The notes beneath the pieces were generated by a model that worked only from the letters and a program-made list of their open reading frames with translations, did no database searches and was not told the origin of the DNA. Made by a program: the position numbers and the translations under genes. A DNA stretch of 64,000 nt from an uncultured candidate division Zixibacteria bacterium. Lineage in GTDB: Bacteria; Zixibacteria; MSB-5A5; UBA10806; 4484-95. Shown here piece after piece: positions 13,470-60,038 of the stretch. The stretch is taken from assembly GCA_963668625.2 (NCBI GenBank), contig CAXXKA010000008.1:256001-320000 (forward strand), in the 5' to 3' direction. Positions within the stretch are counted from its first letter, which is position 1; each line of letters begins with the position of its first letter.

Positions 13470-13483
13470 GTTGGTGATCAAAA

Positions 13484-15747: not shown

Positions 15748-15748
15748 T

Positions 15749-16168: not shown

Positions 16169-16246
16169 AACAACTAATAGCGTTGAAAATTGAATAGATC
16201 TGTAGTAAATACGAGTAGCACGGTTTAACAAGGGATGGTGTAGGAT

Positions 16247-17785: not shown

Positions 17786-18195
17786 ACATAAGCGATCTGC
17801 CGACACTGAACGCCATACTCAATTTCATAAGCGCGGTACTGCTTGGTATCGGTTACACGTTTATCAAAAGGAACGATCCTGTCAGGCATAAGAAAATTAT
17901 GATATCGGCCCTGGTCTCATCCGCGTTATTTTTGATATCATACCTGATTTACCATCGGGCGGTGGGTTCGGTGCCGTATCCCTATCATGACTGGACGCGG
18001 CCCGTGTATTTTATCATACTGATTCCGCATGTAATTTTAGCCGGTTTGATGGTACCTTTTATACTTGCCGCAGTCTGGTTCGCCTTTAAACAGCGATTCA
18101 ATAAGCATATAAAGCTGGTCAAATGGGTGTGGCCGGTGTGGATGTTCGTTTCGGTGAGCGGCATCGTTATCTATCTAATGTTGTATCTTTTATAG
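17782..18195 (+). CDS. DUF420 membrane protein
   Basis: LPTLNAILN, HKKIM, LFLISYLIYH, WMFVSVSG; typical of oxidase clusters. Confidence 0.88.
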   Translation: MNISDLPTLNAILNFISAVLLGIGYTFIKRNDPVRHKKIMISALVSSALFLISYLIYHRAVGSVPYPYHDWTRPVYFIILIPHVILAGLMVPFILAAVWFAFKQRFNKHIKLVKWVWPVWMFVSVSGIVIYLMLYLL

Positions 18196-20536: not shown

Positions 20537-21001
20537 ATGTCATCGATTTTAGCAACACTGTGCTACCTTCGTAAAGGTAGGCAAACCCTGATGCTTCACC
20601 GGGTGAAAAAAGAGAACGATATGCACGAGGGCAAATACAACGGCCTGGGCGGCAAGTTCGAACCCGGCGAATCGCCCGAGCAATGCGCTATACGCGAGGT
20701 GGAGGAGGAATCGGGTCTGACCATGATCGAGCCGGTCATGCGTGGTTTTATCACGTTCCCCAATTTCGATGGTACCAACGACTGGTACGTGTTCATATTC
20801 ACCGCAGATAAATCCGAGGGCGAGATGATAGTCTCCAACGAGGGCAACCTGGAGTGGATAGACAACGATAAACTTCTGGATTTGAACCTCTGGGACGGTG
20901 ATAAAATCTTTCTCAAGTGGCTTGGTGATGATAAATATTTCTCGGCCAAATTCATTTACGATAACGGCGAGTTGATAAGCCATTCGGTGGAGTTTTATTA
21001 A
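20537..21001 (+). CDS. NUDIX hydrolase, 8-oxo-dGTP diphosphatase (MutX-like)
   Basis: ATLCYL, GKYNGLGGKFEPGESPEQCAIREVEEESGL (Nudix box), LWDGD. Confidence 0.9.
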   Translation: MSSILATLCYLRKGRQTLMLHRVKKENDMHEGKYNGLGGKFEPGESPEQCAIREVEEESGLTMIEPVMRGFITFPNFDGTNDWYVFIFTADKSEGEMIVSNEGNLEWIDNDKLLDLNLWDGDKIFLKWLGDDKYFSAKFIYDNGELISHSVEFY

Positions 21002-21146
21002 GAGGATGTTGTTAGTAAAGTAGGTCAAGCCAACCTGGGGCTTGCCTGCCTATCTGTGGACTAACCAGCCTCCGATGTTGATAATACATTGTGACCTGCA
21101 GGCGTCCCTGCCTGCCGCTATATAAAACATCACAGGAGAAACATCG
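20999..21146 (+). repeat. Type-1 spacer copy a (CTD-tail remnant, GTAG-REP hairpin, second hairpin, SD)
   Basis: TAAGAGGATGTTGTTAGTAAAGTAGGTCAAGCC..GGCTTG, then GCAGGCGTCCCTGCCTGC and ACATCACAGGAGA; homologous to 24411-24522 and 25755-25867. Confidence 0.75.
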
Positions 21147-22367
21147 ATGAAAATAAAAATACTGATCATTCTTCTGATGATATTATTGCCAACAGCCCTC
21201 CCCGCTCAAACATACGGCTGGATGGATTTGAGTGATAATCTGCCCGATCATTCCGGATCACCAGGAATTAACAGTGTGTTTTTTGTAGGTGAAAAGGGCT
21301 GGTTAACGACATGCACTGCAACAGTTATATTTTATACCGATAATGCCGGGCAATCGTTCGAGATACAAGAAATGCCGACAAGCATAAATGAAGTTTATAT
21401 GTTGGATGAAAACCGTGGATTTGCCGCCGGGAGCAGTGGCGCTGTTTTCTATACCGAGAACTCCGGGGCTAATTGGAATCTAATAAGTTTATCTTTCCCG
21501 TCTAATGTGAGGGGTATAGATTTCCCCCCGGGCTCCGAGGTCGGATTTATTTGCGGCGATAACGGCTGGGTGGCTAAAGTATGTGCCGATAGTGTATACG
21601 AGCTTGCAGATCTCGCCGTGGCCGGAATGACCGCGATTTCCTGCCCCGAATCGATAAACCAGGCCTGGGTATGTGGCGGTTCGATAATCCGTCACTATTT
21701 AAACGGTGAATGGCTGGCCGATCAAAGCGCGACGCTGGGATACTGGGCAACCTTACACATGTACGATAATTCTTTCGGCTGGGCCGGGGGTGATGGCGGA
21801 ATGATAATACATACCGAGAATGGGTATAATTGGGTACGGCAAGATAATCCGGATACTTTAGAATCTGTTGTATCCAACATTTTTAGCCTCGACTCATTAC
21901 AGGCGTACGCGGTCAGTCATATAGTTCTTCACACCACGGATGGCGGAGTCACCTGGGTGGAGGAAGCGCAAAACATAGATTACCATCATTTTCTAATTGA
22001 CGTATTCGCGGTTGATGAGCATAATGTTTACGTAGTTGGGCAGGAGAACACATTCATGAAATATGGTGAACTGACGGGCATAGAGGAAACCACACCACTG
22101 CCATCAGGGATAAGCCTTCACCAGAACTACCCCAATCCGTTCAATGCTAAAACATCCATAAGATTCGACCTGGATATACAGTCTCAGGTAACACTCGATA
22201 TATACAACGTACTGGGCGAGAGAGTATCCACACTTGCTGATGGTATCTACCCGGCCGGCAATCACACAATCTCGTTTGATGCCTCCCCCTATGCCAGCGG
22301 CGTATATTTCTACAAGCTCGATACGGGGGGGTACATCGAGACTAAGACGATGCTGTTTATAAAATAA
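21147..22367 (+). CDS. Secreted YCF48/BNR-repeat beta-propeller protein with T9SS-type-A-like CTD (paralog A)
   Basis: Signal peptide ending at AQTYGW, TxDGGxTW repeats, C-terminal LHQNYPNPFN...SGVYFYKL...KTMLFIK. Confidence 0.88.
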   Translation: MKIKILIILLMILLPTALPAQTYGWMDLSDNLPDHSGSPGINSVFFVGEKGWLTTCTATVIFYTDNAGQSFEIQEMPTSINEVYMLDENRGFAAGSSGAVFYTENSGANWNLISLSFPSNVRGIDFPPGSEVGFICGDNGWVAKVCADSVYELADLAVAGMTAISCPESINQAWVCGGSIIRHYLNGEWLADQSATLGYWATLHMYDNSFGWAGGDGGMIIHTENGYNWVRQDNPDTLESVVSNIFSLDSLQAYAVSHIVLHTTDGGVTWVEEAQNIDYHHFLIDVFAVDEHNVYVVGQENTFMKYGELTGIEETTPLPSGISLHQNYPNPFNAKTSIRFDLDIQSQVTLDIYNVLGERVSTLADGIYPAGNHTISFDASPYASGVYFYKLDTGGYIETKTMLFIK

Positions 22368-22390
22368 ATTTGTCCCTACATTGAAAACCA

Positions 22391-22596
22391 ACTGTCATTC
22401 CCGAGAAATCCCCGTAAGGGGTGCCTACGGCATAGGAATCTCCCGGCATGGGCAGACAGGTTACCAGATTCCTGTTTTCGCGCGAATGATATTTTGTCTT
22501 TTGATTTAGGGGTGAAGTTCACTTTAACCTGATGTCAACCGGATGTTAAATTCAATCATTCTGGCAAATTCAGGGTACAGCGAGCTCCACCCAATT
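22391..22596. repeat. Type-2 spacer copy a (GTCATTCCC-type IR pair plus inverted REP doublet)
   Basis: Collinear with 27108-27312, with an extra nested CCGTAAGG-GGTG-CCTACGG hairpin. Confidence 0.65.
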
Positions 22597-22740
22597 ATAA
22601 GCGATCACTCATTTCATAGAACTGATAAATAAACTCTTTAAACAGCCATAAACCGTAACTTATACTTGTCAAAATCAGTATTTTTATTATCTTATTTAAA
22701 ACTATTAGATATTAATAATCTAAAAGGAAGGGGTAATTAT

Positions 22741-24414
22741 ATGAAACTCAGAATGATCTTAATAATAGCATTAATGATTCAATCGACAATATCATCGCGC
22801 GCCCAGACACCGTTCGAGGAGATACCCGACTGGCTGTCGGTGGAGGACTACGCCTATGGAACCGGCTGCGAGTTCGGCGATCTTGACGGGGACGGCTATC
22901 TCGACCTGATCGTCTCCAATGGCAATGATATGCTTATGGCGCCCAATTTCGTATATATCAACTTCGATGGCGTGATTAATAACGAGGTCACGTTCATGTC
23001 CTGGGATTCGCTGTATTCGGGGCATTGCGAATTCGGCGATATCAACAATGACGGTTACCCCGAGATTATGGTGGCCAACTATATCTCACCTGACTGGCGT
23101 CCCGGCTCGGTACAGATATATCCTAACGATGGCGGTATTCCCGAGGGCCTGCCCAGTTGGATGCCGGATGATTCGATTTACACCTTCCGCTCATCTTTTG
23201 GCGATCCCGACGGCGATGGCGATCTCGACCTGGCAGTGGCAACCGGCGAGGCCTATCATCACGAGTACCGTCAGAATATGATATTTTTCAACCATGATGG
23301 CGTACTCGAAGCTACTCCCGGCTGGATATCAGAGGATTACGATTGCGCCTATGATGTGCAATTCGTGGATATCGACGGTGACGCCGATCAGGATCTGGCT
23401 ATACTTACCTCCGGTGGGCCCGTGAAAATCTATTATAACGAGCAGGGCACGATTCAAACGCTGCCCGGCTGGGTCTCTGAGGATGACGACAACGGCAACT
23501 CATTCGATTTCGCCGACTTGAACGGTGATGGTTTTCTCGATATGGGCGTAGCCAACAACACCCAGCTTGACGGCTCGGGATATTTCAATATTTACTACTC
23601 GATAAGCGGCGGCCTGCCCACCTCCCCCGACTGGCAGTCCTCCACCACCGGTTATGGCTCCGAGGCGGTGTTCTGCGATATCGATGGTGACGGCGACCAG
23701 GATTTCATTACCGGTAGATGGTTCGAGCTTATCTATATCTATCTCAACAACGATGGCGTGTTCAACACCGAGCCCGACTGGCAATGCGACAGCGACTACG
23801 AACTTGTGGTAGAAAATATAGCCTTCGCCGATATCGACTACGCTGAGGAGGATCTGACTATCGAGACATTCTTAAGCTACGGCGTGCGCAAACTGTTTTA
23901 CTTAAGCGATAGATACATTCAGAATATCGAATTTATCCGTGTGGATGGCGAGATACTGCCAATATCCGAGTACTGCTATAACATTCAGGACTGCTGGATA
24001 TCGCTTAAGGATACGCCTGTCACCTCGGCAACTGTTTACTACCGCACCTCCGAGACCAAGGACATGGCGGTATCAAACTGGGATGGCTCTACTTACATAT
24101 TCTACAATACGGGGCAAACGGGTATATATAATGGTTTCGTGCAAACCCCAAAAGCGGTAAGCCTTCACCAGGCATACCCCAACCCGTTTAACGCTAGAAC
24201 CAGCATCTCGTTTTCTCTGGAATATCCAGGGCAGGTTAGTTTGAGCATATATGATTTAAACGGAAGATTCGTTAATATGCTGACTGATACGTATTACCCG
24301 GCAGGCAACCACAGCTTAACCTGGGATGCCTCCCCCTACGCCAGCGGTATATATTTCTATAAACTCGATACAGGAGATTACACCGAGACTAAGAAGATGT
24401 TGTTGATAAAGTAG
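22741..24414 (+). CDS. Secreted FG-GAP/VCBS-repeat protein with T9SS-type-A-like CTD (gene B)
   Basis: ATG 22741 after AAGGAAGGGG, repeated DLDGDGYLDL-type motifs, CTD AYPNPFN...KKMLLIK. Confidence 0.88.
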   Translation: MKLRMILIIALMIQSTISSRAQTPFEEIPDWLSVEDYAYGTGCEFGDLDGDGYLDLIVSNGNDMLMAPNFVYINFDGVINNEVTFMSWDSLYSGHCEFGDINNDGYPEIMVANYISPDWRPGSVQIYPNDGGIPEGLPSWMPDDSIYTFRSSFGDPDGDGDLDLAVATGEAYHHEYRQNMIFFNHDGVLEATPGWISEDYDCAYDVQFVDIDGDADQDLAILTSGGPVKIYYNEQGTIQTLPGWVSEDDDNGNSFDFADLNGDGFLDMGVANNTQLDGSGYFNIYYSISGGLPTSPDWQSSTTGYGSEAVFCDIDGDGDQDFITGRWFELIYIYLNNDGVFNTEPDWQCDSDYELVVENIAFADIDYAEEDLTIETFLSYGVRKLFYLSDRYIQNIEFIRVDGEILPISEYCYNIQDCWISLKDTPVTSATVYYRTSETKDMAVSNWDGSTYIFYNTGQTGIYNGFVQTPKAVSLHQAYPNPFNARTSISFSLEYPGQVSLSIYDLNGRFVNMLTDTYYPAGNHSLTWDASPYASGIYFYKLDTGDYTETKKMLLIK

Positions 24415-24522
24415 GTCAAGCCTACTTGGGGCTTGACTAACCCGCGCTGATATTGAAAATAGCGTTGTGGCTGGCAGACGTCTCCGTCTGCCGCATAGAA
24501 ATAACATCGCAGGAGAACACCG
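24411..24522 (+). repeat. Type-1 spacer copy b
   Basis: GTAG (contains the TAG stop), GTCAAGCC-TACTTGG-GGCTTGAC, GGCAGACG-TCTC-CGTCTGCC, SD AGGAG. Confidence 0.85.
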
Positions 24523-25758
24523 ATGAAAACAAAAACGCTAATTACCCTACTGATACTATCACTACCCATAACCCTCCTCGCCCAAACCTACGGCTGGATG
24601 AATTTGAGCGACAGGATTAACTCCGAGATAGGAGTTGCCCTGCTCGAGGATGTTCAATTCATCGGGCAGGAGGGATGGATCGCCTCATGGAATTACTCCG
24701 GAGGCGCGGGCGAGATATTCCACACAACCGATGGCGGCCGCACGTTCGAGATACAGACTACGATGTGCGCGACGCGGACTATTTGGATGTTAAGCAATAC
24801 AGTTGGATATTGCGCCGGAGTATCGGGAATAGTGCTAAAAACCATCGATGGCGGAGATACCTGGAATTACCATGGAACAACCGGCGCTAATAGTATCATG
24901 GATATATGCTTTCCACCAGGCAGCGATACCGGCTTTTATTGCGGCACTAACGGGGCAAACGGAAGAATTACCGAGGATGGAGTCATAATCGATACAGTAT
25001 ATACCCCGTATGATCTGGAATCATTATCATTCGCTTTCCCTGATGAGGGTTATTGCTGCGGAGAATGGGGCATTTATCACTATCTTGACGGCGCCTGGTG
25101 CAGGGATCAGTATTATAGGCATGAGTATCATATGGGTATTCATTTTCAAGAGGGAACTACGTTGGGTTGGATTGCCTGTGATGATGGTAATATCGATCAT
25201 ACGACAGATGGCTATGATTGGTACATGCAACCTTCACCAGATTCCAACGATATATCGCTTATAAGTGTATGCTTTATTGATACGAGTCAGGGATGGACAG
25301 CGGGCTGGGGTGGTTTAATTTTGCATACTACCAATGGTGGCCAGGACTGGGAGCGAGTGGCGGATGGCTTAACCGATAACTCTTTTACGACCATATTCGC
25401 GGTAAGCAGCACGGAGGTTTACGCGGTAGGCGTGAATGGTACATTCCTCAAGTACGGAGATATGACAGGTATTGATGATAACAAACAGTTGCCCGCACGT
25501 GTAAGCCTTCACCAGAACTACCCCAACCCGTTCAACGTTTCAACCTCTATACGATTTGAATTGAATAGACAGTCGCAAATAACGCTCGATATTTATAATG
25601 TGCTTGGCAGTAAGATAACTACGATCACCAATGGCATCTACCCGGCTGGCAATCACGCTGTCTCGTTTGATGCCTCCCCCTACGCCAGCGGCATATATTT
25701 CTATAAGCTCGATACAGGAGATTACACAGAGACTAAGAAGATGTTGCTGATAAAGTAG
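24523..25758 (+). CDS. Secreted YCF48/BNR-repeat protein with CTD (paralog C)
   Basis: AQTYGW, HTTDGGRTF, KTIDGGDTW, HTTNGGQDW, CTD. Confidence 0.88.
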   Translation: MKTKTLITLLILSLPITLLAQTYGWMNLSDRINSEIGVALLEDVQFIGQEGWIASWNYSGGAGEIFHTTDGGRTFEIQTTMCATRTIWMLSNTVGYCAGVSGIVLKTIDGGDTWNYHGTTGANSIMDICFPPGSDTGFYCGTNGANGRITEDGVIIDTVYTPYDLESLSFAFPDEGYCCGEWGIYHYLDGAWCRDQYYRHEYHMGIHFQEGTTLGWIACDDGNIDHTTDGYDWYMQPSPDSNDISLISVCFIDTSQGWTAGWGGLILHTTNGGQDWERVADGLTDNSFTTIFAVSSTEVYAVGVNGTFLKYGDMTGIDDNKQLPARVSLHQNYPNPFNVSTSIRFELNRQSQITLDIYNVLGSKITTITNGIYPAGNHAVSFDASPYASGIYFYKLDTGDYTETKKMLLIK

Positions 25759-25867
25759 GTCAAGCCTACTTGGGGCTTGACTAACCCGCGCCTGATATTG
25801 AAAATAACATCGTGGCTGGAAGACGTCCTTGTCTGCTGCAGTAAATGACATCTCAGGAGAAAAACGG
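25755..25867 (+). repeat. Type-1 spacer copy c
   Basis: First ~37 nt identical to copy b; second hairpin degenerate. Confidence 0.85.
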
Positions 25868-27103
25868 ATGAAAAAACAGATACTACTTATCATGCTGATC
25901 CTTTCGCTCCCCATGAACCTCCTCGCTCAAACCTGTGGCTGGATGGATTTGAGCGATAATATACCCTCTGTGAATGAAATCGCGCCTTTGTTAGATGTTG
26001 ATGTTATTGGTGATGAGGTATGGATTACAAGTAGTGGTGAAAACAGGATTTATTATAGTGATGGCGGCGGCTCAACCGAGTTCTCCTACATTGAAACCCC
26101 CTTCGAGCCATACTCGATCTATATGTTGACGCCGTTAGTCGGATACTGCGGCAGCGACGGGGCGGTTTATCGCACCAATGATGGTTGGCAAACATGGGGA
26201 CTACTTTTCCCATTGGCGGGATCATGGGTTACCTGTATTGATTTTCCATCCAATAGTGAACCCGGTTTTTTGAGCACTCTTGGTGGAAATACATATTTAG
26301 TAGATTCCACCGGTTTAACGGAAGTACCTATCGATGTGAGCGTGTCATTGTATAGTATATGTTTTCCTGAGTCATCCGATTTAGGCTGGGTTTGCGGCGA
26401 GGATATCTTATTCCAATTCATAGATAGCGTATGGATTGGAAGGGGAACGCCATTATGGGGCGTTAGCGGAGTTTGTTTTATAGATAATCTTAATGGTTGG
26501 GTCGTGGGGTATGATCTTCAAGGTAACGGGCAAATAGCGCATACATCAAATGGATTGAATTTTACTCTGCAAACCGATCCTAATCCCGAATTGGCGTGCC
26601 TTACAGATGTTGCTTTCTGTGATGATGGTTTGAACGGCTGGGCAATCGGTAATCGAGGTAAAATTCTTCACACGACAAACGGCGGTGAGACCTGGGTGCA
26701 GGAGGCTGAAGATATTAGCGAGAGGCTATTGAATGATATAGTAGCAGTTGATGAGCACACCGCATACATTGCCGGGGGGTATAACACATTCCTGAAATAC
26801 GGCGAGCTTACCAGTGTTGATTATAAGCAACCGTTGCCCTCGCGGGTAAGCCTTCACCAGAACTACCCCAACCCGTTCAACGCTACAACATCCATACGAT
26901 TTGAATTACCAGAGCAAATGGATGTCACATTACTGATATATAACCTGCTCGGGGTAAAGGTCGCAACACTCGCGAACGATAGTTACCCAGCCGGTGGCCA
27001 TATCATCAATTGGGATGCCTCCCCATACGCCAGCGGCATATATTTCTATAAACTCGATACAGGAGATTACACCGAGACTAAGAAGATGTTACTGATTAAA
27101 TAA
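25868..27103 (+). CDS. Secreted YCF48/BNR-repeat protein with CTD (paralog D)
   Basis: ATG 25868 after AGGAG, AQTCGW, RTNDGWQTW, HTTNGGETW, CTD. Confidence 0.88.
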   Translation: MKKQILLIMLILSLPMNLLAQTCGWMDLSDNIPSVNEIAPLLDVDVIGDEVWITSSGENRIYYSDGGGSTEFSYIETPFEPYSIYMLTPLVGYCGSDGAVYRTNDGWQTWGLLFPLAGSWVTCIDFPSNSEPGFLSTLGGNTYLVDSTGLTEVPIDVSVSLYSICFPESSDLGWVCGEDILFQFIDSVWIGRGTPLWGVSGVCFIDNLNGWVVGYDLQGNGQIAHTSNGLNFTLQTDPNPELACLTDVAFCDDGLNGWAIGNRGKILHTTNGGETWVQEAEDISERLLNDIVAVDEHTAYIAGGYNTFLKYGELTSVDYKQPLPSRVSLHQNYPNPFNATTSIRFELPEQMDVTLLIYNLLGVKVATLANDSYPAGGHIINWDASPYASGIYFYKLDTGDYTETKKMLLIK

Positions 27104-27107
27104 AAAA

Positions 27108-27312
27108 ACTGTCATTCCCACAAAAGTGGGAAACTCCCGGCATTAGCAAACTGACAAACAGACCCCCGTTTTCACGGGAATGACATTCTTACTGCTTGTA
27201 GGGGCAAAGTTAACTTTACCCTGATAAGATCGGCCACACTGCTTGAAATATGCATAACATCAATTACAAGCATTCTGCCAAACCCAGGGTAGAGCGAGTT
27301 CTACCCCTACAA
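27108..27312. repeat. Type-2 spacer copy b
   Basis: GTCATTCCCACAAAAGTGGGAA...CACGGGAATGAC, then GTAGGGGCAAAGTTAACTTTACCCTG...CAGGGTAGAGCGAGTTCTACCCCTAC (inverted GTAG-REP doublet). Confidence 0.75.
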
Positions 27313-27361
27313 CGCCGTGATTGACAGAGTCCCATGCTTTCAATCCCAATGAATATTATAG

Positions 27362-27389
27362 TTGACAAACAGTCGCCGCACACTATATT
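27362..27389 (+). promoter_or_regulatory. sigma70-like promoter
   Basis: TTGACA-N16-TATATT. Confidence 0.5.
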
Positions 27390-27456
27390 TACATTATTGG
27401 GAGAGTTTCTAATTTCAATACAATTTATCATTTAACTCTATAAAGCGAGGTGCGTA

Positions 27457-28854
27457 ATGAAAACTAACGTGTCAATAATGATTGTGGCGCTTCTATGTTT
27501 CATGCTTGTCTTTAACGAATCAACCTCTGCCAGCACCATTAACATCCCAGCTGATTACCCGCATATACAGGATGGAATCGACGCCGCCAATGATGGTGAT
27601 ACTATTCTGGTAAATCCCGGCATTTACCTGGAAAATATCAATATCATGAAAGACCATATCGTGCTGGGCTCATTGTTTATTGTTACCGGTGATGAGTCCT
27701 ATATTGATGAAACGATCATCGATGGTGATTCGCTGGGGACTGTTATAAGAATGGGGGCCTACTTGAATGGAGCCGATGATGTTGTGATTGCTGGATTTAC
27801 GATTAAAAATGGCAATGGCGGCGGAATAAAATGTATCGGATCGTGTGAGATATCGAATAATATAATTCGCAATAACAGATCCCGTAAGGCGGGCGGGATT
27901 TATATCTATGGTAATGGCCTGATCATAAATAACCTGATCACTAAAAATCATGCCGGGGATGTCGGAGGTGGTATCGTATCGTATGGCGGTTCAAGTATCA
28001 TCAGAAACAACATTATCTCCCGCAATATCTCCGACCATACTACCGGCGGCGTACATATCGAGGATTCATATTATGTAACAGTCGAGAGCAATATAATTAT
28101 CGGAAATACCTCCGGAGGTAATGGAGGTGGCTTGATATTCTACACTGATAATACTCATTGCATCGTCAACAACAACCTGATCGCGAAAAATAGCTCGTCG
28201 GAAAATGCAGCCATGTCGTTTGCTTATGGAGATTACTATATGGCCAATAATACGATTGCCGATAACAGTGGTTCCGAATGCGGAATGCGCATTTGTGGCT
28301 TTGGTACCACAGTCGAAATGGTCAATAATATTCTCTGGAATAACGGCGGTACTGAAGTTTATGCCGGTGATGGTACACAGACACTTTTCTCGTACTGCGA
28401 TATTAGAGGAGGGTATTATGGCGAAGAGAATATCAATCTTAATCCGATGTTTTGTGATGTCGAAAATAACGATTACAACTTGATGGAGGAATCGCCGTGT
28501 ATCGGTACCGGCTATGAGGAGTCCAACATGGGAGCCTGCCCGGTTGGCTGCGAAAATATGGATATAGCAGATGACCCGGAGGGATTACCCACAGTCAGTA
28601 GCCTTCACCAGAACTACCCCAACCCATTCAACGCCACCACAAAAATAGAATTCAGCTTAGATCAAAGTCTGTACGTAAATCTCGAAATTTACAATATCCT
28701 GGGCGAGAGGATAAGCACGCCGGTAAATAATTACTTGGAAAAAGGTAACCATAGTATTATATTATTGTCAACAAACTTACCCACCGGGGTGTATTTCTAC
28801 AAGTTAAGAGCGGGAGAGTATAGTCAAACGAGGCGTATGTTATTACTGAAATAA
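27457..28854 (+). CDS. Secreted right-handed parallel beta-helix protein with CTD (gene E)
   Basis: IPADYPHIQDGIDAA..GDTILV.PG.Y.ENI, GGGI/IxxN repeats, SPCIGTG, CTD. Confidence 0.85.
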   Translation: MKTNVSIMIVALLCFMLVFNESTSASTINIPADYPHIQDGIDAANDGDTILVNPGIYLENINIMKDHIVLGSLFIVTGDESYIDETIIDGDSLGTVIRMGAYLNGADDVVIAGFTIKNGNGGGIKCIGSCEISNNIIRNNRSRKAGGIYIYGNGLIINNLITKNHAGDVGGGIVSYGGSSIIRNNIISRNISDHTTGGVHIEDSYYVTVESNIIIGNTSGGNGGGLIFYTDNTHCIVNNNLIAKNSSSENAAMSFAYGDYYMANNTIADNSGSECGMRICGFGTTVEMVNNILWNNGGTEVYAGDGTQTLFSYCDIRGGYYGEENINLNPMFCDVENNDYNLMEESPCIGTGYEESNMGACPVGCENMDIADDPEGLPTVSSLHQNYPNPFNATTKIEFSLDQSLYVNLEIYNILGERISTPVNNYLEKGNHSIILLSTNLPTGVYFYKLRAGEYSQTRRMLLLK

Positions 28855-28901
28855 TAGCGCGTATAACCGGGCTGTAAACAGCCGATTCGAAGGAGCGCTG
28901 T

Positions 28902-30380
28902 ATGAGGACGTTAAAATATCTCCTGGCTCTTACAATGATTTTCATACTATCTCAACCTCTATTCGCTCAAATGGCCGACACTGTCTGGACTAAACGATTC
29001 GGCGGCAACAGGTGGGATGAGGGCTCCTCCGTCCGCAGGCTTGATGACGGCGGATATATCATAACCGGCTACTCGGCCTCTTTCGGTGATGCTCTCGGTG
29101 ATTTCTACGTGGTTCGCACCGACTACCACGGCAATACAATTTGGGAAAACACCTATGGCGGCAATGATTGGGACTGGGCCTACTGCCTGGCTACCGCGCC
29201 CGCGGGAGGTTTCGTTACAGTAGGTTATTCGCAGTCTTTTGGCGAGGGAATCGGCACAATATATTTTATCAAAATTAACGGCGGCGGCCAGATCGAATGG
29301 ACGAAAACTTACGGCAGCCAGTTTAACGATGACGCCCGATGCGTACAACGAACCAAGCAACACGGTATCGGTAACGGTTACATTATCTGCGGCTGGACTC
29401 ATCACCCGGAATATATGCGCGATGTTTACCTGATACGAACCGACTACGACGGCGACACACTCTGGACGAAACGTTACGGCGAGGACAATGACGAGTTAGG
29501 TTACTGGGTATCGCAGACACCCGATTACGGCTATGTCGTTACGGGAGCTGTAAGGTATAACGATAATCTCTGCACCGATATGTACCTTCTGAAAACCGAC
29601 CCTTATGGTAATACGCTCTGGTCGCGAAATTACGGCGGAGAGAATTACGAATGCGCATACCAGGTGATTCAGGACTACCATAGCGGCGGCTACGTATTGA
29701 TAGGTGAATCCAAATCATTCGGCACTGGTGACTATGATATATATATGGTAAAAACGGATGCCGAGGGTGATACGGTCTGGACCAGAACATACGGCGGCCC
29801 CGGTGATGAGCACGGCTATAAAGTTTTATACGAACCGGATGGCTATGTCATCGTGGGATCAACTGAATCTTACGGCGCCGGTGATTTCGATATCTGGTTG
29901 ATAAAAACCGATGTTGATGGTAACGCTATCGGTGCACGAACATACGGCGGCCGCGGGTTCGATTATGGTTTCTCGGTTATCAAAACTGATAATAACGAAT
30001 ACCTGATAACAGGAACCACCGGATCATTCAGCAGTAACGGCACTTTTGATGCCTACCTGCTCAAAGTCCACCCCGACTTCACGGTAGGTATCGATGATGA
30101 TAATATGACCATTCCGGATGATATCGGCTTATCGCAAAACTATCCCAATCCGTTCAACGCTAAAACATCCATAAGATTTGAATTAACTAAACAGTCGCAA
30201 ATAACGCTTGATATATACGACGTTCTTGGAAATAAAATAACTACGTTAGCTAATGACATCTACCCGGCGGGCAATCATAATATCTCGTTTGATGCCTTCC
30301 GCTACGCCAGCGGTATATATTTCTATAAACTCGATACGGGAGACTACACCGAGACCAAGAAGATGTTGCTGATAAAATAA
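28902..30380 (+). CDS. Secreted beta-propeller repeat protein (WxKTYGG repeats) with CTD (gene F)
   Basis: About seven YLIKTDxxGDTLWTKxYGG repeats, CTD. Confidence 0.85.
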   Translation: MRTLKYLLALTMIFILSQPLFAQMADTVWTKRFGGNRWDEGSSVRRLDDGGYIITGYSASFGDALGDFYVVRTDYHGNTIWENTYGGNDWDWAYCLATAPAGGFVTVGYSQSFGEGIGTIYFIKINGGGQIEWTKTYGSQFNDDARCVQRTKQHGIGNGYIICGWTHHPEYMRDVYLIRTDYDGDTLWTKRYGEDNDELGYWVSQTPDYGYVVTGAVRYNDNLCTDMYLLKTDPYGNTLWSRNYGGENYECAYQVIQDYHSGGYVLIGESKSFGTGDYDIYMVKTDAEGDTVWTRTYGGPGDEHGYKVLYEPDGYVIVGSTESYGAGDFDIWLIKTDVDGNAIGARTYGGRGFDYGFSVIKTDNNEYLITGTTGSFSSNGTFDAYLLKVHPDFTVGIDDDNMTIPDDIGLSQNYPNPFNAKTSIRFELTKQSQITLDIYDVLGNKITTLANDIYPAGNHNISFDAFRYASGIYFYKLDTGDYTETKKMLLIK

Positions 30381-30496
30381 CGGCGGATATCCCTGTCTAC
30401 CGCATAGGACAATATCGAAAAAAAACCCTATGGAATAATCCAAACAATTCATTGTATATATCATGCTGAAACTAAACGTAACGGAGGTGTAAATAC

Positions 30497-30991
30497 ATGA
30501 GAATAATCATTATTTCATTCTTACTGCTATCACTGATGATCGGAGGATGCCAAACCGTGGATAAACAAATTGATATCGCGGCTGAAAAAGCCATCATAGA
30601 AAAAGTAATTAAAAACAATATCGCCTGGGCTGTTACTAAAGACACTACCCTGCTATACAGCACGGTTGCCCAGGATGAGGACCTGTTTTATTTCAGCCCA
30701 TCGGATAACGGCACTATATCCGGGTTTGAGGCTTTTAAACAGCTTACCGAGGGCTTTTTCATGCATCCTGATTTCAAGGGTGTAGATTCCAACACTCGCG
30801 AGATGGTCATCCATATTTCGCAATCAGGGGATGCCGCCTGGTGGCATTGCCGTCTGGATGATTTTAACGAGTGGAAAGGTCAACCGGCAAACTGGGAGGA
30901 TTATCGCTGGTCGGGCGTACTGGAAAAACGCGAAGGCAAGTGGGTGATAGTCCAGATGCATTTCTCCAGGGCAACCGACAAAGCCGAGTAG
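30497..30991 (+). CDS. SnoaL/NTF2-like lipoprotein
   Basis: SD GGAGG, lipobox IGGC, RWSGVLEKREGKWVIVQMHFS. Confidence 0.85.
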   Translation: MRIIIISFLLLSLMIGGCQTVDKQIDIAAEKAIIEKVIKNNIAWAVTKDTTLLYSTVAQDEDLFYFSPSDNGTISGFEAFKQLTEGFFMHPDFKGVDSNTREMVIHISQSGDAAWWHCRLDDFNEWKGQPANWEDYRWSGVLEKREGKWVIVQMHFSRATDKAE

Positions 30992-31384: not shown

Positions 31385-31451
31385 ATCATTGAGAGAACAA
31401 ACCGCCGGGAATGTTATCATTTTAAAACTTAAACGTTAGATGAGGTGTTGT

Positions 31452-32855
31452 ATGAGTTGTAAATCTATAGGAAAATTAGCGATCTTTTTTGTTCTAGCCG
31501 TTTTCTCGGCAGCCCTGGCCGATATCAATTGGACAGAACATGTCATCGATGATGACTTTGAGGATGCCTGGGGCGTTTACATATGCGATTTCGATAATGA
31601 CGGCGATATGGATATCATCGGTTGCTCAAAAGAGGATGGCATAGCCGGTTACGAAAACGATGGCATGCAGAATTTCGAAAAAGTCGTACAGGATAATACT
31701 ATCGGCAGCATTAACGCCATTGAGGCCGTCGATTTCGATGGCGACGGCTTACTCGATATCCTGGCCGCCGGCGAAGGGCACAGTAATGATGGTATCGTTG
31801 CCTGGTACCACAACAATGACTCATTGAGTTTCACTCGTTATGATATAACTACCGACCTGGAGTATTGCCAGCACGCCGAGGCAAAAGATATCGACAGCGA
31901 CGGTGATATCGATATCCTGGCATGCGGTAGCTGGAGTTACGAGATAGTCTGGTTCGAAAACGACGGCGAACAGGTTTTCACCCGTCACAGCATTATTGAT
32001 GATTATGGCTATTCATATTTCGCAACAGCCGTTGATTTCGATTTAGATGAAGATATCGATATAGTAGCCGCCGGGGCGTACGAGGATATTACCTGGTTCG
32101 AAAACGATGGTGACGAAAATTTTACAGCCCACGATATATCCGACCTCGATACCTGTTTCTCGGCCTCGCTGGCAATCGCTGATTTGAATAATGATGGTGA
32201 TCTGGATATAATTGCTCCTGATCTCTGGCAAGATAAGGTATTCGCTTTCATCAATCTCGGCGGTATGACATTCTCGATGTATACTATCGACCACTCTTAT
32301 AACGGCGTCTATGATGTCGCCGTGGCGGATATCAATAACGATGGTTTTCTGGACATTACGGGAGCAGCCTGGGATGATGCAATGGTGTCATGGTGGGAAA
32401 ATATCAGCGATAGCGGATATGTCCGTCACGACCTGACCGATGAATACCCACGCGCCAGACGAGCCAGACCGGCGGATATCAATGGCGACGGCGCTCTTGA
32501 TATCGTAGCAACCTGCCAGCAGGGAGATAAACTCGCCTGGTGGGAAAACGACCTGTATACCTCCATCCCTGCTGATGATAATAAATTGCCCGAGAACGTA
32601 TCTCTTCTAAGCGCCTACCCGAATCCATTTAACGCCACCACTACCATCTCATTCGATTTGAATAATCCTCAACAGACACGATTGGATATTTACGATATTC
32701 AGGGCAGAAAAATAACCACCCTTCTAAATGAGTACAAACAGGCCGGGCATTATAATGTACATTTCGATGCTTCCGAATATGCCAGCGGTGTTTATCTATA
32801 TCGCTTACAGGCAGGTGATTATTCCGAATCGAAAAGAGTGGTGCTGCTGAAATAG
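31452..32855 (+). CDS. Secreted FG-GAP/VCBS-repeat protein with CTD
   Basis: SD GAGGTG, DFDxDGDxDI..WFEN repeats, SAYPNPFN...KRVVLLK. Confidence 0.87.
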   Translation: MSCKSIGKLAIFFVLAVFSAALADINWTEHVIDDDFEDAWGVYICDFDNDGDMDIIGCSKEDGIAGYENDGMQNFEKVVQDNTIGSINAIEAVDFDGDGLLDILAAGEGHSNDGIVAWYHNNDSLSFTRYDITTDLEYCQHAEAKDIDSDGDIDILACGSWSYEIVWFENDGEQVFTRHSIIDDYGYSYFATAVDFDLDEDIDIVAAGAYEDITWFENDGDENFTAHDISDLDTCFSASLAIADLNNDGDLDIIAPDLWQDKVFAFINLGGMTFSMYTIDHSYNGVYDVAVADINNDGFLDITGAAWDDAMVSWWENISDSGYVRHDLTDEYPRARRARPADINGDGALDIVATCQQGDKLAWWENDLYTSIPADDNKLPENVSLLSAYPNPFNATTTISFDLNNPQQTRLDIYDIQGRKITTLLNEYKQAGHYNVHFDASEYASGVYLYRLQAGDYSESKRVVLLK

Positions 32856-32882
32856 ATATAAGATTTATCAAAAAAGTTAACG

Positions 32883-32908
32883 GTAGGGGTTCATTATTTT
32901 GAACCCCT
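32883..32908. repeat. GTAG-type REP-like hairpin, possibly acting as terminator
   Basis: GTAGGGGTTCA-TTATTT-TGAACCCCT followed by TTT. Confidence 0.55.
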
Positions 32909-33261
32909 TTCTATTTATATCATCCCGATCAAACAGGTGTTCGACATACGAAAAGACATGTCATGCCGTGCCTTTATGTTTGGTATTTGATTTCCCTCTT
33001 GAATGAAATTACAATCTATCATACCAGCCGGGCGGCCTGAACCCCATATTCCCGAACAATCCTTTATATTTTGCATATCATACAATAATGTTTATATTGA
33101 TATTCAAAATATGCCGAACCGGCTGAATGTATCGGCATTAATTTAACAGAGAGGTCAATAGCAAAGCCCGAATCAATATTTAGAAATAGAGCGTTTTGCC
33201 GAATATGTTAATGTCTCGAGCAGGTTGAGCAGTCGGCATTATTTAAATGAGGTAACACGAG

Positions 33262-34212
33262 ATGTCAAAAAATTTCGCCTTAATAGGATGCGGCGGTTAT
33301 GTCGCCCCTCGCCACATGAAAGCTATAAAAGATACTGGAAATACCCTGGTTGCCGCCATCGATCCGTTCGATTCTGTAGGCATACTCGACAGATATTTTA
33401 CCGATGTGCGTTTTTTCACCGAATTCGAACGCTTCGACCGTCATATTGATAAATTGCGACGTAAAAACGAGGGCTCCCAGGTTCACTACGTATCTATCTG
33501 CTCGCCTAATTTCCTTCATGACGCACACGCACGTTTCGCCCTTCGTATAGGCTCGAGCGCAATCTGTGAAAAGCCAATGGTGCTCAATCCCTGGAATATC
33601 GATGCTCTTCAGGAGCTCGAGGCCGAAAGTGAAGGAAAAATCAAAACGGTCTTACAGCTTCGGGTTCATCCCTCTATTATCAAACTAAAAGCCGAGTTGG
33701 AAAAAGCGAAATCCACTAAGAAAAAAGAGGTAGTTCTAACTTATATCACCTCACGCGGCCCCTGGTACCTGCAGTCATGGAAAGGTCAAATTGAAAAATC
33801 AGGCGGATTGGCAACCAATATCGGTATTCATTTCTTCGATATGTTGCTCTGGCTATTCGGTAAGGTGGAGCATAAAGAGGTGCATCACGATTCCCCTTTG
33901 AAAACCGGCGGCTATCTCGATTTAGAGGGAGCTAACGTAAAATGGTATCTATCTATCGATAGAAATGACCTGCCCAAAGAGGCAACCGATAAAGGCCAAC
34001 CGACATTCAGGTCTATCACCATTGATGGCGAAGAGTTGGAGTTCTCGGGCGGATTTACCGATTTGCACACCGTTGTCTACAAAGATATTCTCAACGGTAA
34101 AGGTTATGGTCTGGATGCGGTTAAGCCCTCGATAACTTTAGCCCACGATATCAGGAATGCCAAGGCTACCGGGATAAGCCCGAACTCCCATAGTTTTTTA
34201 CAGAAGCTATAG
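33262..34212 (+). CDS. wbpB: UDP-N-acetyl-2-amino-2-deoxyglucuronate dehydrogenase (Gfo/Idh/MocA, WbpB/WlbA-like)
   Basis: NFALIG.GGYVAPRH.KAI, DSVGILD, FFTEFERFDRH, CEKP, YITSRG.WY..SWKG, ATNIGIHFFD, EFSGGFTDLH. Confidence 0.88.
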   Translation: MSKNFALIGCGGYVAPRHMKAIKDTGNTLVAAIDPFDSVGILDRYFTDVRFFTEFERFDRHIDKLRRKNEGSQVHYVSICSPNFLHDAHARFALRIGSSAICEKPMVLNPWNIDALQELEAESEGKIKTVLQLRVHPSIIKLKAELEKAKSTKKKEVVLTYITSRGPWYLQSWKGQIEKSGGLATNIGIHFFDMLLWLFGKVEHKEVHHDSPLKTGGYLDLEGANVKWYLSIDRNDLPKEATDKGQPTFRSITIDGEELEFSGGFTDLHTVVYKDILNGKGYGLDAVKPSITLAHDIRNAKATGISPNSHSFLQKL

Positions 34213-34298
34213 GCTAAGTTATTTCCAATAAATTATTTATCCGGTTTAACAGGCATTAACCCGGCCTGTTCAGGTAAACCATTAATATCATGATAATG

Positions 34299-34326
34299 TT
34301 GACAAAATATAGAATTATTATATATT
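34299..34326 (+). promoter_or_regulatory. sigma70-like promoter
   Basis: TTGACA-N16-TATATT. Confidence 0.5.
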
Positions 34327-34396
34327 ACTATAACGATAACCCAAAGTATCGGGCAGGGAGTAATAATATAGTTAATTGGTAATCATCGGAGGTTTT

Positions 34397-35674
34397 ATGT
34401 TGCCTGCAGGTAACCGTTTTTTAGGATTTATCATTATCATAATACTAATTACCAGCGCTACGCTATACGGCAGGTTGCGATATATACCGGATGATTATAC
34501 GAATATTCAAACCGCAATCAATGATTCCGGCGGCGGCGATACTCTTATTGTGCGTCCCGGCACTTATTACGAAAATATCAATTTCAACGGGCAAAACCTG
34601 GTATTGGCCTCGGAGATGCTTCTAACCGGTGACTACAACTATATCGAAACCACTATCCTCGATGGCGACTCCTCGGATGCTGTTTTAACATTTGCCAACG
34701 GCGAGGGGCCATCATCTCTGGTATACGGCTTTACCATTCAACACGGCAAATCACATGATGGCGCCGGTGTTTTCTGTGATGGCGCCAGCCCGATTATCGC
34801 TTACAACATAATTCGCAATAATTATGCCTACCGTCCCACTGGCGGCGGTAATGGTGGCGGAGTATATTGCTCGTACTCCAACGCTATTATCATGAACAAT
34901 CTGATAGCGCACAATCAATGCTCGGGAGTCTATGGCGGATTCGGCGCCGGTATAGCCAGCAGAAACGCCGTTCCGATCATAATTAACAATACGATAACCC
35001 GTAATTTATCGAATCAACTCGGTGGCGGTTTATTCTCGACATATTCCAACCCGGTAGTTACCAACTGTATTTTCTGGAACAATGAGGCGGTAGATGAGGG
35101 CAACGAACTGTATATACACGAAAGCGATTTCTCTATCACCTACAGCGATATTTTCGCCGGCTATGCCGGACAGGGCAATATTAATTCCAACCCTGAATTC
35201 CGCGATCCGGCTAACGATGACTTCCGCCTGATGTCTACCGAATATGGTTATTCTTACGATTCACCATGCATCGATACGGGCAATCCATTGTTCAAGGATC
35301 ACATTCTTAGCGAACTATGGGGGCTGGGCACGGTAACCAGCGATATGGGCGCGTTTGGTGGTGGTGATTCCACCGGCACCGATATTTTCGGGGAAATACG
35401 GAGTATCCCCGATAAAATCGCTTTAAATCAGAATTATCCGAATCCTTTTAATCCGGTTACGAAAATAGATTTTAATTTGAACGAACCTCAACATGTAATA
35501 CTTAAAGTCTTCAATCTATTGGGCCAGGAAATAGAGTCGCTCATTGATAATACTCTTGAGGCCGGTTCGCACTCTGTTACATTTGACGCCTCAAAGCTTT
35601 CCAGCGGTGTATACTATTACACCCTGAAAACGAATGACAGAGTCGAATCGAGAAGTATGGTGTTGATGAAATAG
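34397..35674 (+). CDS. Secreted parallel beta-helix protein with CTD
   Basis: SD GGAGG, IPDDYTNIQTAIN..GDT..V.PGTYYENI, SPCIDTG, SDMGAFGG, QNYPNPFNP. Confidence 0.85.
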   Translation: MLPAGNRFLGFIIIIILITSATLYGRLRYIPDDYTNIQTAINDSGGGDTLIVRPGTYYENINFNGQNLVLASEMLLTGDYNYIETTILDGDSSDAVLTFANGEGPSSLVYGFTIQHGKSHDGAGVFCDGASPIIAYNIIRNNYAYRPTGGGNGGGVYCSYSNAIIMNNLIAHNQCSGVYGGFGAGIASRNAVPIIINNTITRNLSNQLGGGLFSTYSNPVVTNCIFWNNEAVDEGNELYIHESDFSITYSDIFAGYAGQGNINSNPEFRDPANDDFRLMSTEYGYSYDSPCIDTGNPLFKDHILSELWGLGTVTSDMGAFGGGDSTGTDIFGEIRSIPDKIALNQNYPNPFNPVTKIDFNLNEPQHVILKVFNLLGQEIESLIDNTLEAGSHSVTFDASKLSSGVYYYTLKTNDRVESRSMVLMK

Positions 35675-35763
35675 AATCATCTACCCGGCTATACGACATC
35701 AATTATAGTTTGCTATATTTATTGTCGATAATATATATAGTATAATTGCAAGGGGAGAAAATC

Positions 35764-36849
35764 ATGGGAAGACTTAGATTAAAATTGAGTGTTGTTTTAT
35801 GCCTGATAATTATCGGGCTTTTTAGCAGTTCACTTTCCGCTCAACCGCTGATTGCAGATCATACCCTGACCGGCTACTGGTCCGAAATACCGACCTCGGT
35901 TATTGATCGAATATCTAATGATTTCGAGATCTATTACTGGCATACCTCTCATGGCGGCCAGATTATTTCGGGCTTGACCGAGGTAAGCGATCTGGATGAC
36001 AGATTTCCGGATTTAAACTATTACCCGTACGAAATCATCAGTGAGATCGGCGATGACCTCGGCTACGATGGCGATACCACCTGGGCGGGACCTACCCGAA
36101 CATTCTTGAACAGCCATCCCAATTGTAATATGGTGATGTATAGCTGGTGCGGCGGCGTATCGTATAACAGCGAATCGGGTATTAACGTCTATCTCAATAA
36201 AATGACCGAACTGGAGAGCCAGTATCCAGGCGTAACATTCGTTTACATGACCGGCCATCTCGATGGTGGCGGGCCATCCGGCAACCTGTACGTTCGCAAC
36301 AACCAAATCCGCCAATACTGTAACGCCAATAACAAAGTGCTTTTCGATTTCGCGGATATCGAGTCATACGATCCCGATGGCAATTACTACCCCAATGCCA
36401 GTGACGCTTGCGAATGGTGTTCGAGCTGGTGTACCGATAACGGTCACGATTGCCTGGATGATTGCTACTGCGCTCATTCGCATTGTTTCAATTGCCGGCG
36501 TAAAGCCCAAACCTGGTGGGTGATGACCGCCCTTATCGCGGGATGGACAATAACGGATATCGAAACCGAAACCACCAACCTTCCGGGGAAAACTCATATA
36601 TCACAGAATTACCCTAATCCATTCAACGAATCGACCATTATAAAGTACGAGTTGATGAGCCAATCGGATATACTGATAGAAATTTTCACGGTGGATGGCC
36701 GTCTGGTTAAAACACTTGTCGATGGCAACAAACCGGCCGGAAGTTACCAGGTGATGTGGAATGCGTCCGAAAATTCGGCAGGAGTATACCTGGCAAAAAT
36801 AACGACCTCGGATTACGCTGAAAAAATAAAAATGATATTACTAAAATAG
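35764..36849 (+). CDS. Secreted uncharacterised Cys-rich protein with CTD
   Basis: Signal peptide, HTSHGGQI, SWCG, YMTGHLDG, LFDFADIES, Cys cluster and AHSH, CTD. Confidence 0.8.
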   Translation: MGRLRLKLSVVLCLIIIGLFSSSLSAQPLIADHTLTGYWSEIPTSVIDRISNDFEIYYWHTSHGGQIISGLTEVSDLDDRFPDLNYYPYEIISEIGDDLGYDGDTTWAGPTRTFLNSHPNCNMVMYSWCGGVSYNSESGINVYLNKMTELESQYPGVTFVYMTGHLDGGGPSGNLYVRNNQIRQYCNANNKVLFDFADIESYDPDGNYYPNASDACEWCSSWCTDNGHDCLDDCYCAHSHCFNCRRKAQTWWVMTALIAGWTITDIETETTNLPGKTHISQNYPNPFNESTIIKYELMSQSDILIEIFTVDGRLVKTLVDGNKPAGSYQVMWNASENSAGVYLAKITTSDYAEKIKMILLK

Positions 36850-59039: not shown

Positions 59040-60038
59040 CTAATACTCCAATACCACCGAGAAAATGTTAGTGCCGCCGAGATCTTTCATGTCGGTATAA
59101 GCGAAATCCAGAAGCGCGTTAAAACCCGAGGCGTTTATTTTAAGCCCGGCGCCCAGCGAGAAATTTTCGACCGAGGAGTTGAACAGGTAACCGCCCCTGA
59201 GAAAGAGCATATCCTGGTAGCCGTATTCGACACCCATCGCGATATTTTCGGCGTTGTCTGTTGGATGGTTTAACTGTGTCGCCCAGGTAAGCTTTCCGTT
59301 GTCGGTCGTCAGCGGATCGAAAGCCGCCGAAAGCTTGAACACGGTTGGCGAGGAGAACGACTGGTAATCTTTCTCGATCCACTCACCGGATACTGTTTTA
59401 TACCGGAAAGAACCTTCAGGCTTAATCCTGCCCCCGAAATTCGACATATTAATAGCGAAACGAGTTGCGTAAAAATCGGTCTGATACAGAGTGCCGAGAT
59501 CGAACATCAAGGCGCGCATCTTCAAATCGTCCAAGTTTTCCTGCGCGAATTTGATAGTAAGCCCGCAGGAGAAATATTCCGTAAGTCTGATAGCGTATGT
59601 CAACCCGGCCGCAAAATCGGAATAGTCGAACATCTCGCCATTACCGGTCGGATTGTACTCGTCGGTCATCTCGAACGAGTCGGTTCCCAGGGTAATCAAG
59701 TAGGCTCCCAGCACATTCGAGTCATCCAGATGTTTGGTAACCCCGAAAAAACTATGCTTGAACTCTACTACCCATTGACGGTAGGCGAATCCGAAACCAT
59801 CCCTGTCATTGAAAGCGATACCGGCGGGATTGTGGTACAGTGCGAAAGCATCCGTAGCCGTTGCGGTGTAGGCTCCAGCCAGGGAGGCCGCCCTGGCGCC
59901 AACCCCGATTTTCAAAAATGTCATGGCTGAGGTGCCGGAACGCTCCTCGCCCAGGCTGGGGAAAATGTTGCCGGCGTTTGCTGATGAGATAGCCATGATA
60001 ATCAGCAGTACAGTTATAATTCTCGTAACTTTTACCAT
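59040..60038 (-). CDS. PorV/PorQ-family outer-membrane barrel
   Basis: FLKIGVGARA.SL.GA, NPAGIA, DLGTLY, GVEY, LRGGY, DFAY, terminal aromatic residue. Confidence 0.85.
   Translation of the reverse strand: MVKVTRIITVLLIIMAISSANAGNIFPSLGEERSGTSAMTFLKIGVGARAASLAGAYTATATDAFALYHNPAGIAFNDRDGFGFAYRQWVVEFKHSFFGVTKHLDDSNVLGAYLITLGTDSFEMTDEYNPTGNGEMFDYSDFAAGLTYAIRLTEYFSCGLTIKFAQENLDDLKMRALMFDLGTLYQTDFYATRFAINMSNFGGRIKPEGSFRYKTVSGEWIEKDYQSFSSPTVFKLSAAFDPLTTDNGKLTWATQLNHPTDNAENIAMGVEYGYQDMLFLRGGYLFNSSVENFSLGAGLKINASGFNALLDFAYTDMKDLGGTNIFSVVLEY

Follow-up and report, generated by a model that had tools for sequence, protein, structure and literature searches.

Probable concerted evolution and tail replacement in an array of type IX secretion cargo genes from a Zixibacteria bacterium

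The KLIKK proteases of Tannerella forsythia are unrelated enzymes (serine and metallo-proteases) whose clustered genes end in virtually identical type IX secretion system (T9SS) C-terminal domains (CTDs) (PMC4404884, PMC7014623). This identity was called unusual by the KLIKK authors, who suggested a recent common origin (PMC4404884). Here, we describe a comparable array in a 64,000-nt stretch of DNA from an uncultured candidate division Zixibacteria bacterium (contig CAXXKA010000008.1, positions 256,001 to 320,000), hereafter called the window. Six genes, A to F, lie on the same strand between positions 21147 and 30380, and three more, G to I, extend to 36849. Most likely, these T9SS-type cargo genes underwent concerted evolution and tail replacement by ordinary, occasional recombination; a dedicated shuffling system was not supported.

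As far as the published descriptions go, the array resembles the KLIKK cluster in its clustered genes, unrelated passengers, near-identical CTD ends and two conserved islands around a variable stretch. However, sharing there extends over the whole 86-residue CTD, whereas here it is confined to a short front block and the final 29 residues, which places the crossovers inside the CTD. Furthermore, the CTD ends in KLIKK there and in MLLIK here, and the present array has repeat-domain passengers, no upstream small lipoprotein genes, and hairpins of the repetitive extragenic palindrome (REP) type between its genes. By analogy, the array would work like the KLIKK cluster without being a member of the KLIKK family. 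The gingipain/HagA genes of Porphyromonas gingivalis likewise encode T9SS cargo, and homologous recombination between modules they have in common has diversified them, but there adhesin modules are exchanged and strain variation is documented, whereas here it is the sorting signal, in one genome (PMC5266723).

The intergenic hairpins also have described counterparts. Being intergenic, GTAG- or (C/T)GTC-tagged and often dimeric, they resemble REPs and REP dimers. As with the published GTAG- and CGTC/TGTC-tagged REPs, hairpin dimers lie just downstream of genes and GTAG gives the TAG stop (PMC3733652, PMC3333891), an arrangement reported to be common (PMC3733652); unlike the described TnpA-REP system, no transposase was found in the window (PMC3333891). 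The Neisseria intergenic mosaic element (NIME)/dRS3 arrays and the mafB/fhaB C-terminal cassettes similarly show dRS3-like inverted pairs beside surface-protein genes, and these repeats were hypothesised to raise local recombination, varying the neighbouring surface genes; by contrast, the present locus has neither long arrays nor silent alternative C-termini, and its C-terminus is the constant part (PMC1797815). In the freely accessible main texts searched, no DNA-level account of CTD conversion was found beyond the KLIKK, gingipain, REP and Neisseria papers cited.

Shared CTD tails in genes with different passengers

A T9SS type A sorting domain (TIGR04183/PF18962) was found above the curated cutoffs at the C-terminus of all nine genes, A to I, and their N-terminal starts were basic-hydrophobic, as judged by eye only. 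The passengers were YCF48/BNR domains in A, C and D, FG-GAP repeats in B and G, and a right-handed beta-helix in E; that of F is repeat-containing and propeller-like, with no passenger family above cutoff. The genes are the following.

21147..22367, plus strand: gene A, signal-peptide-like start, YCF48/BNR passenger and T9SS type A CTD (PF14870, PF18962 and TIGR04183 above cutoff); tail 22278-22367
22741..24414, plus strand: gene B, 557 aa when started at the ATG at 22741, with an FG-GAP passenger; linker and CTD front native, last 29 codons foreign, crossover probably just upstream of 24325
24325..24414, plus strand: tail of B, YCF48-array type by residue identity
24523..25758, plus strand: gene C, YCF48/BNR passenger and CTD (Pfam/CTD profiles, DNA comparison); second block 25501-25537, tail 25669-25758
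25868..27103, plus strand: gene D, YCF48/BNR passenger and CTD; second block 26846-26882; tail 27014-27103; exact match to B over 53 nt at 27038
27457..28854, plus strand: gene E, right-handed beta-helix passenger and CTD; only the second block shared, 26-nt exact run with C and D at 28600
28902..30380, plus strand: gene F, propeller-like repeat passenger and whole CTD of the YCF48-array type (69/83 CTD residues as in C; best tail identity 21/29 among 119 non-self homologs); tail 30291-30380
31440..36849, plus strand: control CTD genes G (31440-32855), H (34376-35674) and I (35746-36849), without DNA homogenisation in the codon and fragment tests

Genes A, B, C, D and F end in a common 90-nt block starting at 22278, 24325, 25669, 27014 and 30291, exactly where the original prediction had placed it. 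The tails of B and C differed at 4/90 sites, corresponding to four synonymous codons and no non-synonymous one, and recounting returned the predicted 7/90 for B-D and 8/90 for B-F. The gapless B/C identity indeed extended 33 nt beyond the stops, with an exact run of 44 nt (24404-24447 = 25748-25791). A second block was confirmed at 22113, 24160, 25504, 26849 and 28600 with 2, 4, 0, 0 and 1 mismatches of 34, respectively; in F it has 9 mismatches of 34. The tail of A was looser (15-16/90 differences from B, C, D and F, with 5-7 residue changes), and that of E, which has only the second block in common, differed at 38-42/90.

Synonymous identity was evaluated at residues identical in two genes, with the codon usage of the window as the null. 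The B and C tails used the same codon at 24/28 residues as compared with 11.3 expected (P 2.5e-7), which bears out the earlier statement that the identity exceeds what the protein requires. An excess was seen in all ten tail pairs among A, B, C, D and F (each P <= 0.013), and in 0/26 pairs involving E, G, H or I at P < 0.2, the controls G, H and I sitting only 1-6 kb from the array with no truly unlinked gene among them. Elsewhere, the genes are saturated: the A, C and D passengers (about 33% protein identity) had the same codon at 32/81, 38/84 and 28/83 residues versus 31.3, 31.5 and 30.1 expected, and the CTD middles of B-C, B-D and C-D were saturated at the synonymous level. Tail and middle differed by Fisher's test at P < 0.01 in five of the ten pairs (B-C, B-D, B-F, C-D and D-F); A-C gave 0.03, and A-B, A-D, A-F and C-F were not significant. 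The tail identity shared by A, B, C, D and F is thus real and far above synonymous saturation. The T9SS translocon is reported to tolerate CTDs that are not identical (PMC10994853), so that selection on the protein does not require identity.

The CTDs are mosaic, although the proposed pattern for the middle, in which F resembles A and then C, was weak. In the first half, A-F had 9/16 same codons (P 0.07) and C-F 9/17 (P 0.1); in the second half, C-F had 12/16 (P 0.002) and A-F 9/15 (P 0.03).

The longest exact runs were 53 nt (B-D, with differences clustered at P 0.007), 44, 37 and 36 nt, and 11 of the 14 variable tail columns among B, C, D and F fell at third positions. Nei-Gojobori estimates of synonymous divergence (dS) in the tail, based on about 18 synonymous sites each, were 0.27 for B-C, 0.36-0.56 for the other B, C, D and F pairs and 0.7-1.1 with A. 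Such values of 0.27-0.56 are unlike those of an actively homogenised repeat and speak against the active amplification and shuffling once proposed. Together with the few long exact runs, they fit sporadic events spread over a long period, a few short tracts being younger, rather than a constantly homogenised repeat.

An assembly collapse or chimera of similar CTD ends is extremely unlikely: such repeats did cause errors at the KLIKK loci of the Tannerella genome (PMC4404884), but here each tail copy differs from each other copy at 4-16/90 sites, mostly third positions, exact runs do not exceed 53 nt, all frames are intact, the proteins are located on a 1,398,153-nt contig, and the same type of tail recurs in an independent protein record, P0002. 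A diversity-generating retroelement acting at the 3' ends of the genes could also come to mind, given the repeats of about 90-120 nt there. However, the differences were mainly synonymous and not adenine-confined for any template copy (highest 20/39, for D). Furthermore, a Pfam scan of 53 window open reading frames (ORFs), from which ORF 1-1110 and ORFs < 100 aa were excluded, found no reverse transcriptase or transposase, nor any recombinase, the last as the original prediction had stated. The probability of such an element is negligible.

Chimeric structure of gene B and concerted evolution

As comparison with its homologs shows, gene B is a chimera in which an FG-GAP front is joined to a YCF48-array tail. 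Its named close homologs come from candidate division Zixibacteria (P0084, 68%). In the tail, 29/29 residues of B were identical with those of C and D, as compared with 15-20/29 for its ten best homologs, and the YKLDTG motif of the array was present in none of the 120 homologs listed for B. With the consensus of the ten homologs as reference, the diagnostic residues of B were 22 of homolog type versus 5 of C type before the tail, and 0 versus 10 in the tail (P 9e-6). The CTD middle of B shared only 17-19/43 residues with those of C and D.

Trees of 20 rows (the nine window genes, the ten best B homologs and P0002) were built separately for the first 71 and the last 29 columns. In the first, B grouped with its homologs (98/93), and forcing it into the array was rejected by the approximately unbiased (AU) test (p-AU 0.03). 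In the second, B grouped with A, C, D, F and P0002 (98/99). As the tail type belongs to the YCF48 family, to which the independent YCF48-CTD protein P0002 attests, the exchange was directed into B. The segment moved comprises the last 29 codons of the signal and no passenger, contrary to the suggestion that surface proteins are swapped.

These data bear on the view that no exchange took place and that, since an ancient duplication, selection on DNA or RNA (structure, promoter, binding site) has kept the tails conserved. A relic tail ahead of gene A, described below, did keep the last 21 nt of the tail outside any CTD gene, and weak sigma-70-like matches (9 of 12) occur in all three copies of the intergenic unit IG1. 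However, the tails are not more stably folded than shuffled sequences (z -1.68 to +0.76), D and F have the tail in common but different downstream DNA, and the tail of B is not descended from that of its own family. We consider this view, which the chimeric B contradicts, very unlikely, although selection could still help to retain the tail.

Database homologs of the FG-GAP passenger of B (e.g. P0151-P0191) have either a T9SS CTD or a dockerin domain (PF00404), depending on the record. From these records, whole C-terminal modules appear to have been interchanged across the FG-GAP family.

The passenger of P0002 was closest to that of C (142/276 identical residues, versus 95/270 and 97/270), and reciprocally the C passenger was closest to P0002 (142/276; paralogs 88-90/272). 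In contrast, the C tail was identical to those of its paralogs B and D (29/29) and matched P0002 at 26/29, and the window tails separated from P0002 in the tree at 96/87. A passenger nearest to P0002 with a tail nearest to the paralogs is the signature of concerted evolution. A protein search with the tail region gave 78 matches from 113 candidates, among which P0002 was the only one outside the window with the array tail type; B itself was neither among the matches listed nor among its own listed homologs, so that the search is no proof that other genes of the source genome are without the tail. Gene F had no close homolog (non-self matches <= 43% identity), and we infer the history and origin of its array-type CTD.

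For a wider view, 230 CTDs aligning gap-free were taken from 460 non-self proteins, a pool enriched by the tail search, compared at the protein level and drawn from separate contigs. Modal residue frequency was 0.78 in the block, 0.49 in the middle and 0.61 in the tail; the islands shared in DNA thus coincide with the segments that CTDs conserve generally. At least 26/29 tail residues were common to 159 of 26,335 CTD pairs, 33 of which also shared at least 39/43 middle residues, and in 18 of these 33 the passengers had no BLAST match to each other. At the level of these protein sequences, this indicates that CTDs common to different passengers are not peculiar to the A-F locus.

Near-identical whole CTDs on dissimilar passengers were also noticed in Ignavibacteria-like proteins (P0028, P0031, P0035, P0040, P0043, P0047, P0049, P0050 and P0063), two members of the pool being named Ignavibacteria. 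A scan of genome contigs for the tail peptide gave one match, a contig of a Zixibacteria metagenome-assembled genome (MAG) with three CTD genes whose last 90 nt differed at 41-47 sites; no array of the A-F type was present on this single contig. The CTD-coding stretch behind the match (L001, 215-481) has an in-frame stop or frameshift upstream, near 236-240, and may be a broken gene. The junction DNA 24300-24620 had no match in plasmids or phages.

Intergenic units, hairpins and mechanism

The repeated unit exceeds the tail, which the original prediction had missed: it comprises the tail, a REP-type intergenic region and the next signal peptide. A relic of the tail without a gene body had also escaped notice. 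The intergenic features are the following.

20537..21001, plus strand: NUDIX gene (Pfam NUDIX; 8-oxo-dGTP diphosphatase-like), apparently intact, with tblastn matches to 8-oxo-dGTP diphosphatases reaching residue 154/154; the relic tail begins with its TAA stop
20999..21023, plus strand: relic CTD tail, 25 nt, last 7 codons and TAG (repeat family D9, alignment)
21020..21146, plus strand: IG1 copy 1, GTAG-tagged hairpin (15-nt insertion), second degenerate hairpin, ribosome-binding site (alignment, folding, hairpin scan)
22390..22615, plus strand: IG2 copy 1, TGTC-tagged (dRS3-like) inverted pair and degenerate GTAG pair (local alignment to the region after D)
24411..24522, plus strand: IG1 copy 2, GTAG supplying the stop codon of B (fold z -4.88)
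25755..25867, plus strand: IG1 copy 3, GTAG supplying the stop codon of C (alignment, folding, hairpin scan)
27107..27330, plus strand: IG2 copy 2, TGTC-tagged pair and inverted pair of GTAG hairpins (27198 plus, 27310 minus; hairpin scan)

The B/C and C/D junctions align over the tail and the 110-nt IG1 and on into the following YCF48 gene, as far as its signal peptide and the start of the mature protein. Their identity was 93-100% over the tail and first hairpin, then 67-87%, with about 70-80% in the rest of IG1. The relic matched the B tail before GTAG at 18/21 nt, as compared with 4/21 in the stretch just upstream. The IG2 regions after A and after D are homologous (alignment score 200 versus a maximum of 118 in 200 shuffles). 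From the IG1 copies at three junctions and this IG2 homology, it was concluded that A and C/D occupy two copies of a block consisting of tail, IG1, YCF48 gene and IG2.

A home-made tag-plus-stem scan of the window found 20 tagged hairpins, 11 intergenic and 9 genic. It found none beside E or F, which share blocks, whereas a GTAG hairpin follows G, 27 nt beyond the stop, and yet the tail of G is unshared. REP hairpins are therefore neither required (F, E) nor sufficient (G) for exchange, and their predicted role as exchange points was not upheld.

A related proposal invokes a TnpA-REP/REP-associated tyrosine transposase (RAYT) with its gene elsewhere: by nicking single-stranded DNA close to the hairpins, it would initiate conversion in the tail next to them and now and then transfer a unit of tail, IG1 and gene. 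GTAG- and TGTC-tagged hairpins and dimers flank A, C and D, the relic homology starts exactly at the T of a C-T step, 21 nt before GTAG in B and C, the TnpA-REP of E. coli cuts between C and T and performs strand transfer (PMC3333891), and a similar idea was put forward for the Neisseria NIME arrays (PMC1797815). However, CT occurs five times in the 90-nt B tail, which makes the coincidence weak, and on the NUDIX side the last base is T instead of C. Between the B crossover (about 24325) and the hairpin lie 86 nt, the cuts reported in the cited work fall inside REP dimers and linkers and not in flanking genes (PMC3333891), and no Y1 transposase was present among the 53 ORFs scanned. Given also the hairpin distribution around E, F and G, we hold this proposal to be unlikely. 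Also doubtful is its fuller form, in which a domesticated REP-associated Y1 transposase would nick between C and T beside stop-overlapping hairpins, making the secretion-signal DNA a standing crossover site; units of tail, REP and next secreted gene would be duplicated, inserted and fused, and arrays of exported proteins built up and remodelled in Zixibacteria-like bacteria. If a REP-associated nuclease did drive the exchange, the locus would be of much greater importance.

The same-strand array, the repeated junction units and the one relic end might further suggest a dedicated cassette system (integron-, shufflon- or silent-cassette-like) that is active at present and reorders or swaps passengers. 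Against it, the 53 ORFs contained no integrase or invertase (IntI tyrosine recombinase included), no RYYYAAC...GTTRRRY core pair as expected of attC was found in 20900-30500 (regex for the consensus), Rfam gave 0 matches, and the six genes are full-length with no silent partial copy, only the 25-nt relic; moreover, the closest tails and the rest of IG1 have diverged to the extent given above. Such a system is highly improbable. Of the original interpretation, recombination or gene conversion among the CTD ends stood, whereas a cassette or shuffling system exchanging at REP hairpins did not.

DNA exchange (crossover or gene conversion) among CTD ends, unrelated passengers included, is thus supported, and concerted evolution by homologous crossover and short gene conversion in conserved CTD segments is the reading that we favour, with a probability of about 0.72. 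Host homologous recombination acts on sufficiently similar segments; RecA would be the presumed agent, although recA is not in the window. Old duplications would have built the tandem YCF48/BNR-CTD family, every copy with its upstream intergenic unit. Protein constraint would keep the YPNPFN block and the last 29 residues alike in DNA, leaving substrates for recombination after the passengers had diverged. Occasional unequal crossovers and short conversion tracts may then have homogenised the tails of A, C and D. A crossover probably brought the FG-GAP front of gene B together with a YCF48-type tail, the intergenic unit belonging to that tail, and gene C; a single crossover just upstream of 24325 would explain the tail of B, the IG1 behind it and the adjacency to C. 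Recombination may likewise have given F its YCF48-type CTD and E a short patch, and a deletion or insertion may have left the relic tail ahead of A. This order of events, and the assignment of each tract to crossover or conversion, are our inference. The products would stay functional because any intact CTD works as a signal for export, presumably by a T9SS-like machine, and selection would remove only non-synonymous and frameshifting outcomes.

A GENECONV-type check (home-made fragment permutation test, 203 polymorphic sites) speaks for this reading, with 6/36 pairs significant after Bonferroni correction and none with G, H or I, but the test took all polymorphic sites, so that protein conservation contributes and it is not independent of it. 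Several observations weigh against the reading. The AU test on the 29-column tail failed to reject B with its homologs (p 0.081; few columns). Gene G is untouched although it lies 1 kb from F. Seven of the 11 intergenic tagged hairpins fall between 20999 and 27330, and the identity between the B/C and C/D junctions peaks on the GTAG hairpin (30/30). Finally, the relic junction at 20999 joins a CTD tail to the NUDIX gene without homology, pointing to an illegitimate or enzyme-made join.

Under the homologous reading, the locus shows at the DNA level, and with the direction resolved, how unrelated proteins can acquire a common T9SS sorting signal, which the work on the KLIKK proteases had not settled; it also shows that a crossover may lie within the CTD. 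It further suggests that CTD similarity says little about where a cargo gene came from and can cause errors in assembly and annotation.

Neighbouring genes and minor observations

One further feature is related to secretion.

59040..60038, minus strand: PorV/PorQ family gene, a T9SS-type carrier family in the window (NF033709, 199 bits versus a cutoff of 90; under the cutoff of the PorV equivalog)

This gene lies in one run with genes for a TonB-dependent receptor and an NHL-repeat protein (57392-63968, minus strand). At the other end of the window, an open ORF (1-1110, minus strand) with a signal-peptide-like start and BNR-like repeats runs off the edge and is possibly another CTD gene. Weak Pfam matches to TcdB_toxin_midN in B and G were partial and overlapped the FG-GAP repeats, and were not taken as evidence of a toxin.

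Upstream of the NUDIX gene, an Arylsulfotransferase-family secreted protein (18365-20491) has, in place of a CTD, a duplicated C-terminal motif without a Pfam match, which appears dockerin-like. A recX gene (39981-40616) has no recA adjoining, and the gene upstream of it is AHSA1-like. A 15-nt tandem repeat with 21 overlapping copies occupies 42433-42897; within it, a minus-strand ORF without a Pfam match (42473-42841) would encode a lysine-rich, histone-like protein. Positions 2699-18195 carry genes of the Alternative complex III type (ActD, NrfD-like, multiheme cytochromes) and, after them, those for the subunits and assembly of cytochrome c oxidase, which suggests aerobic respiration.

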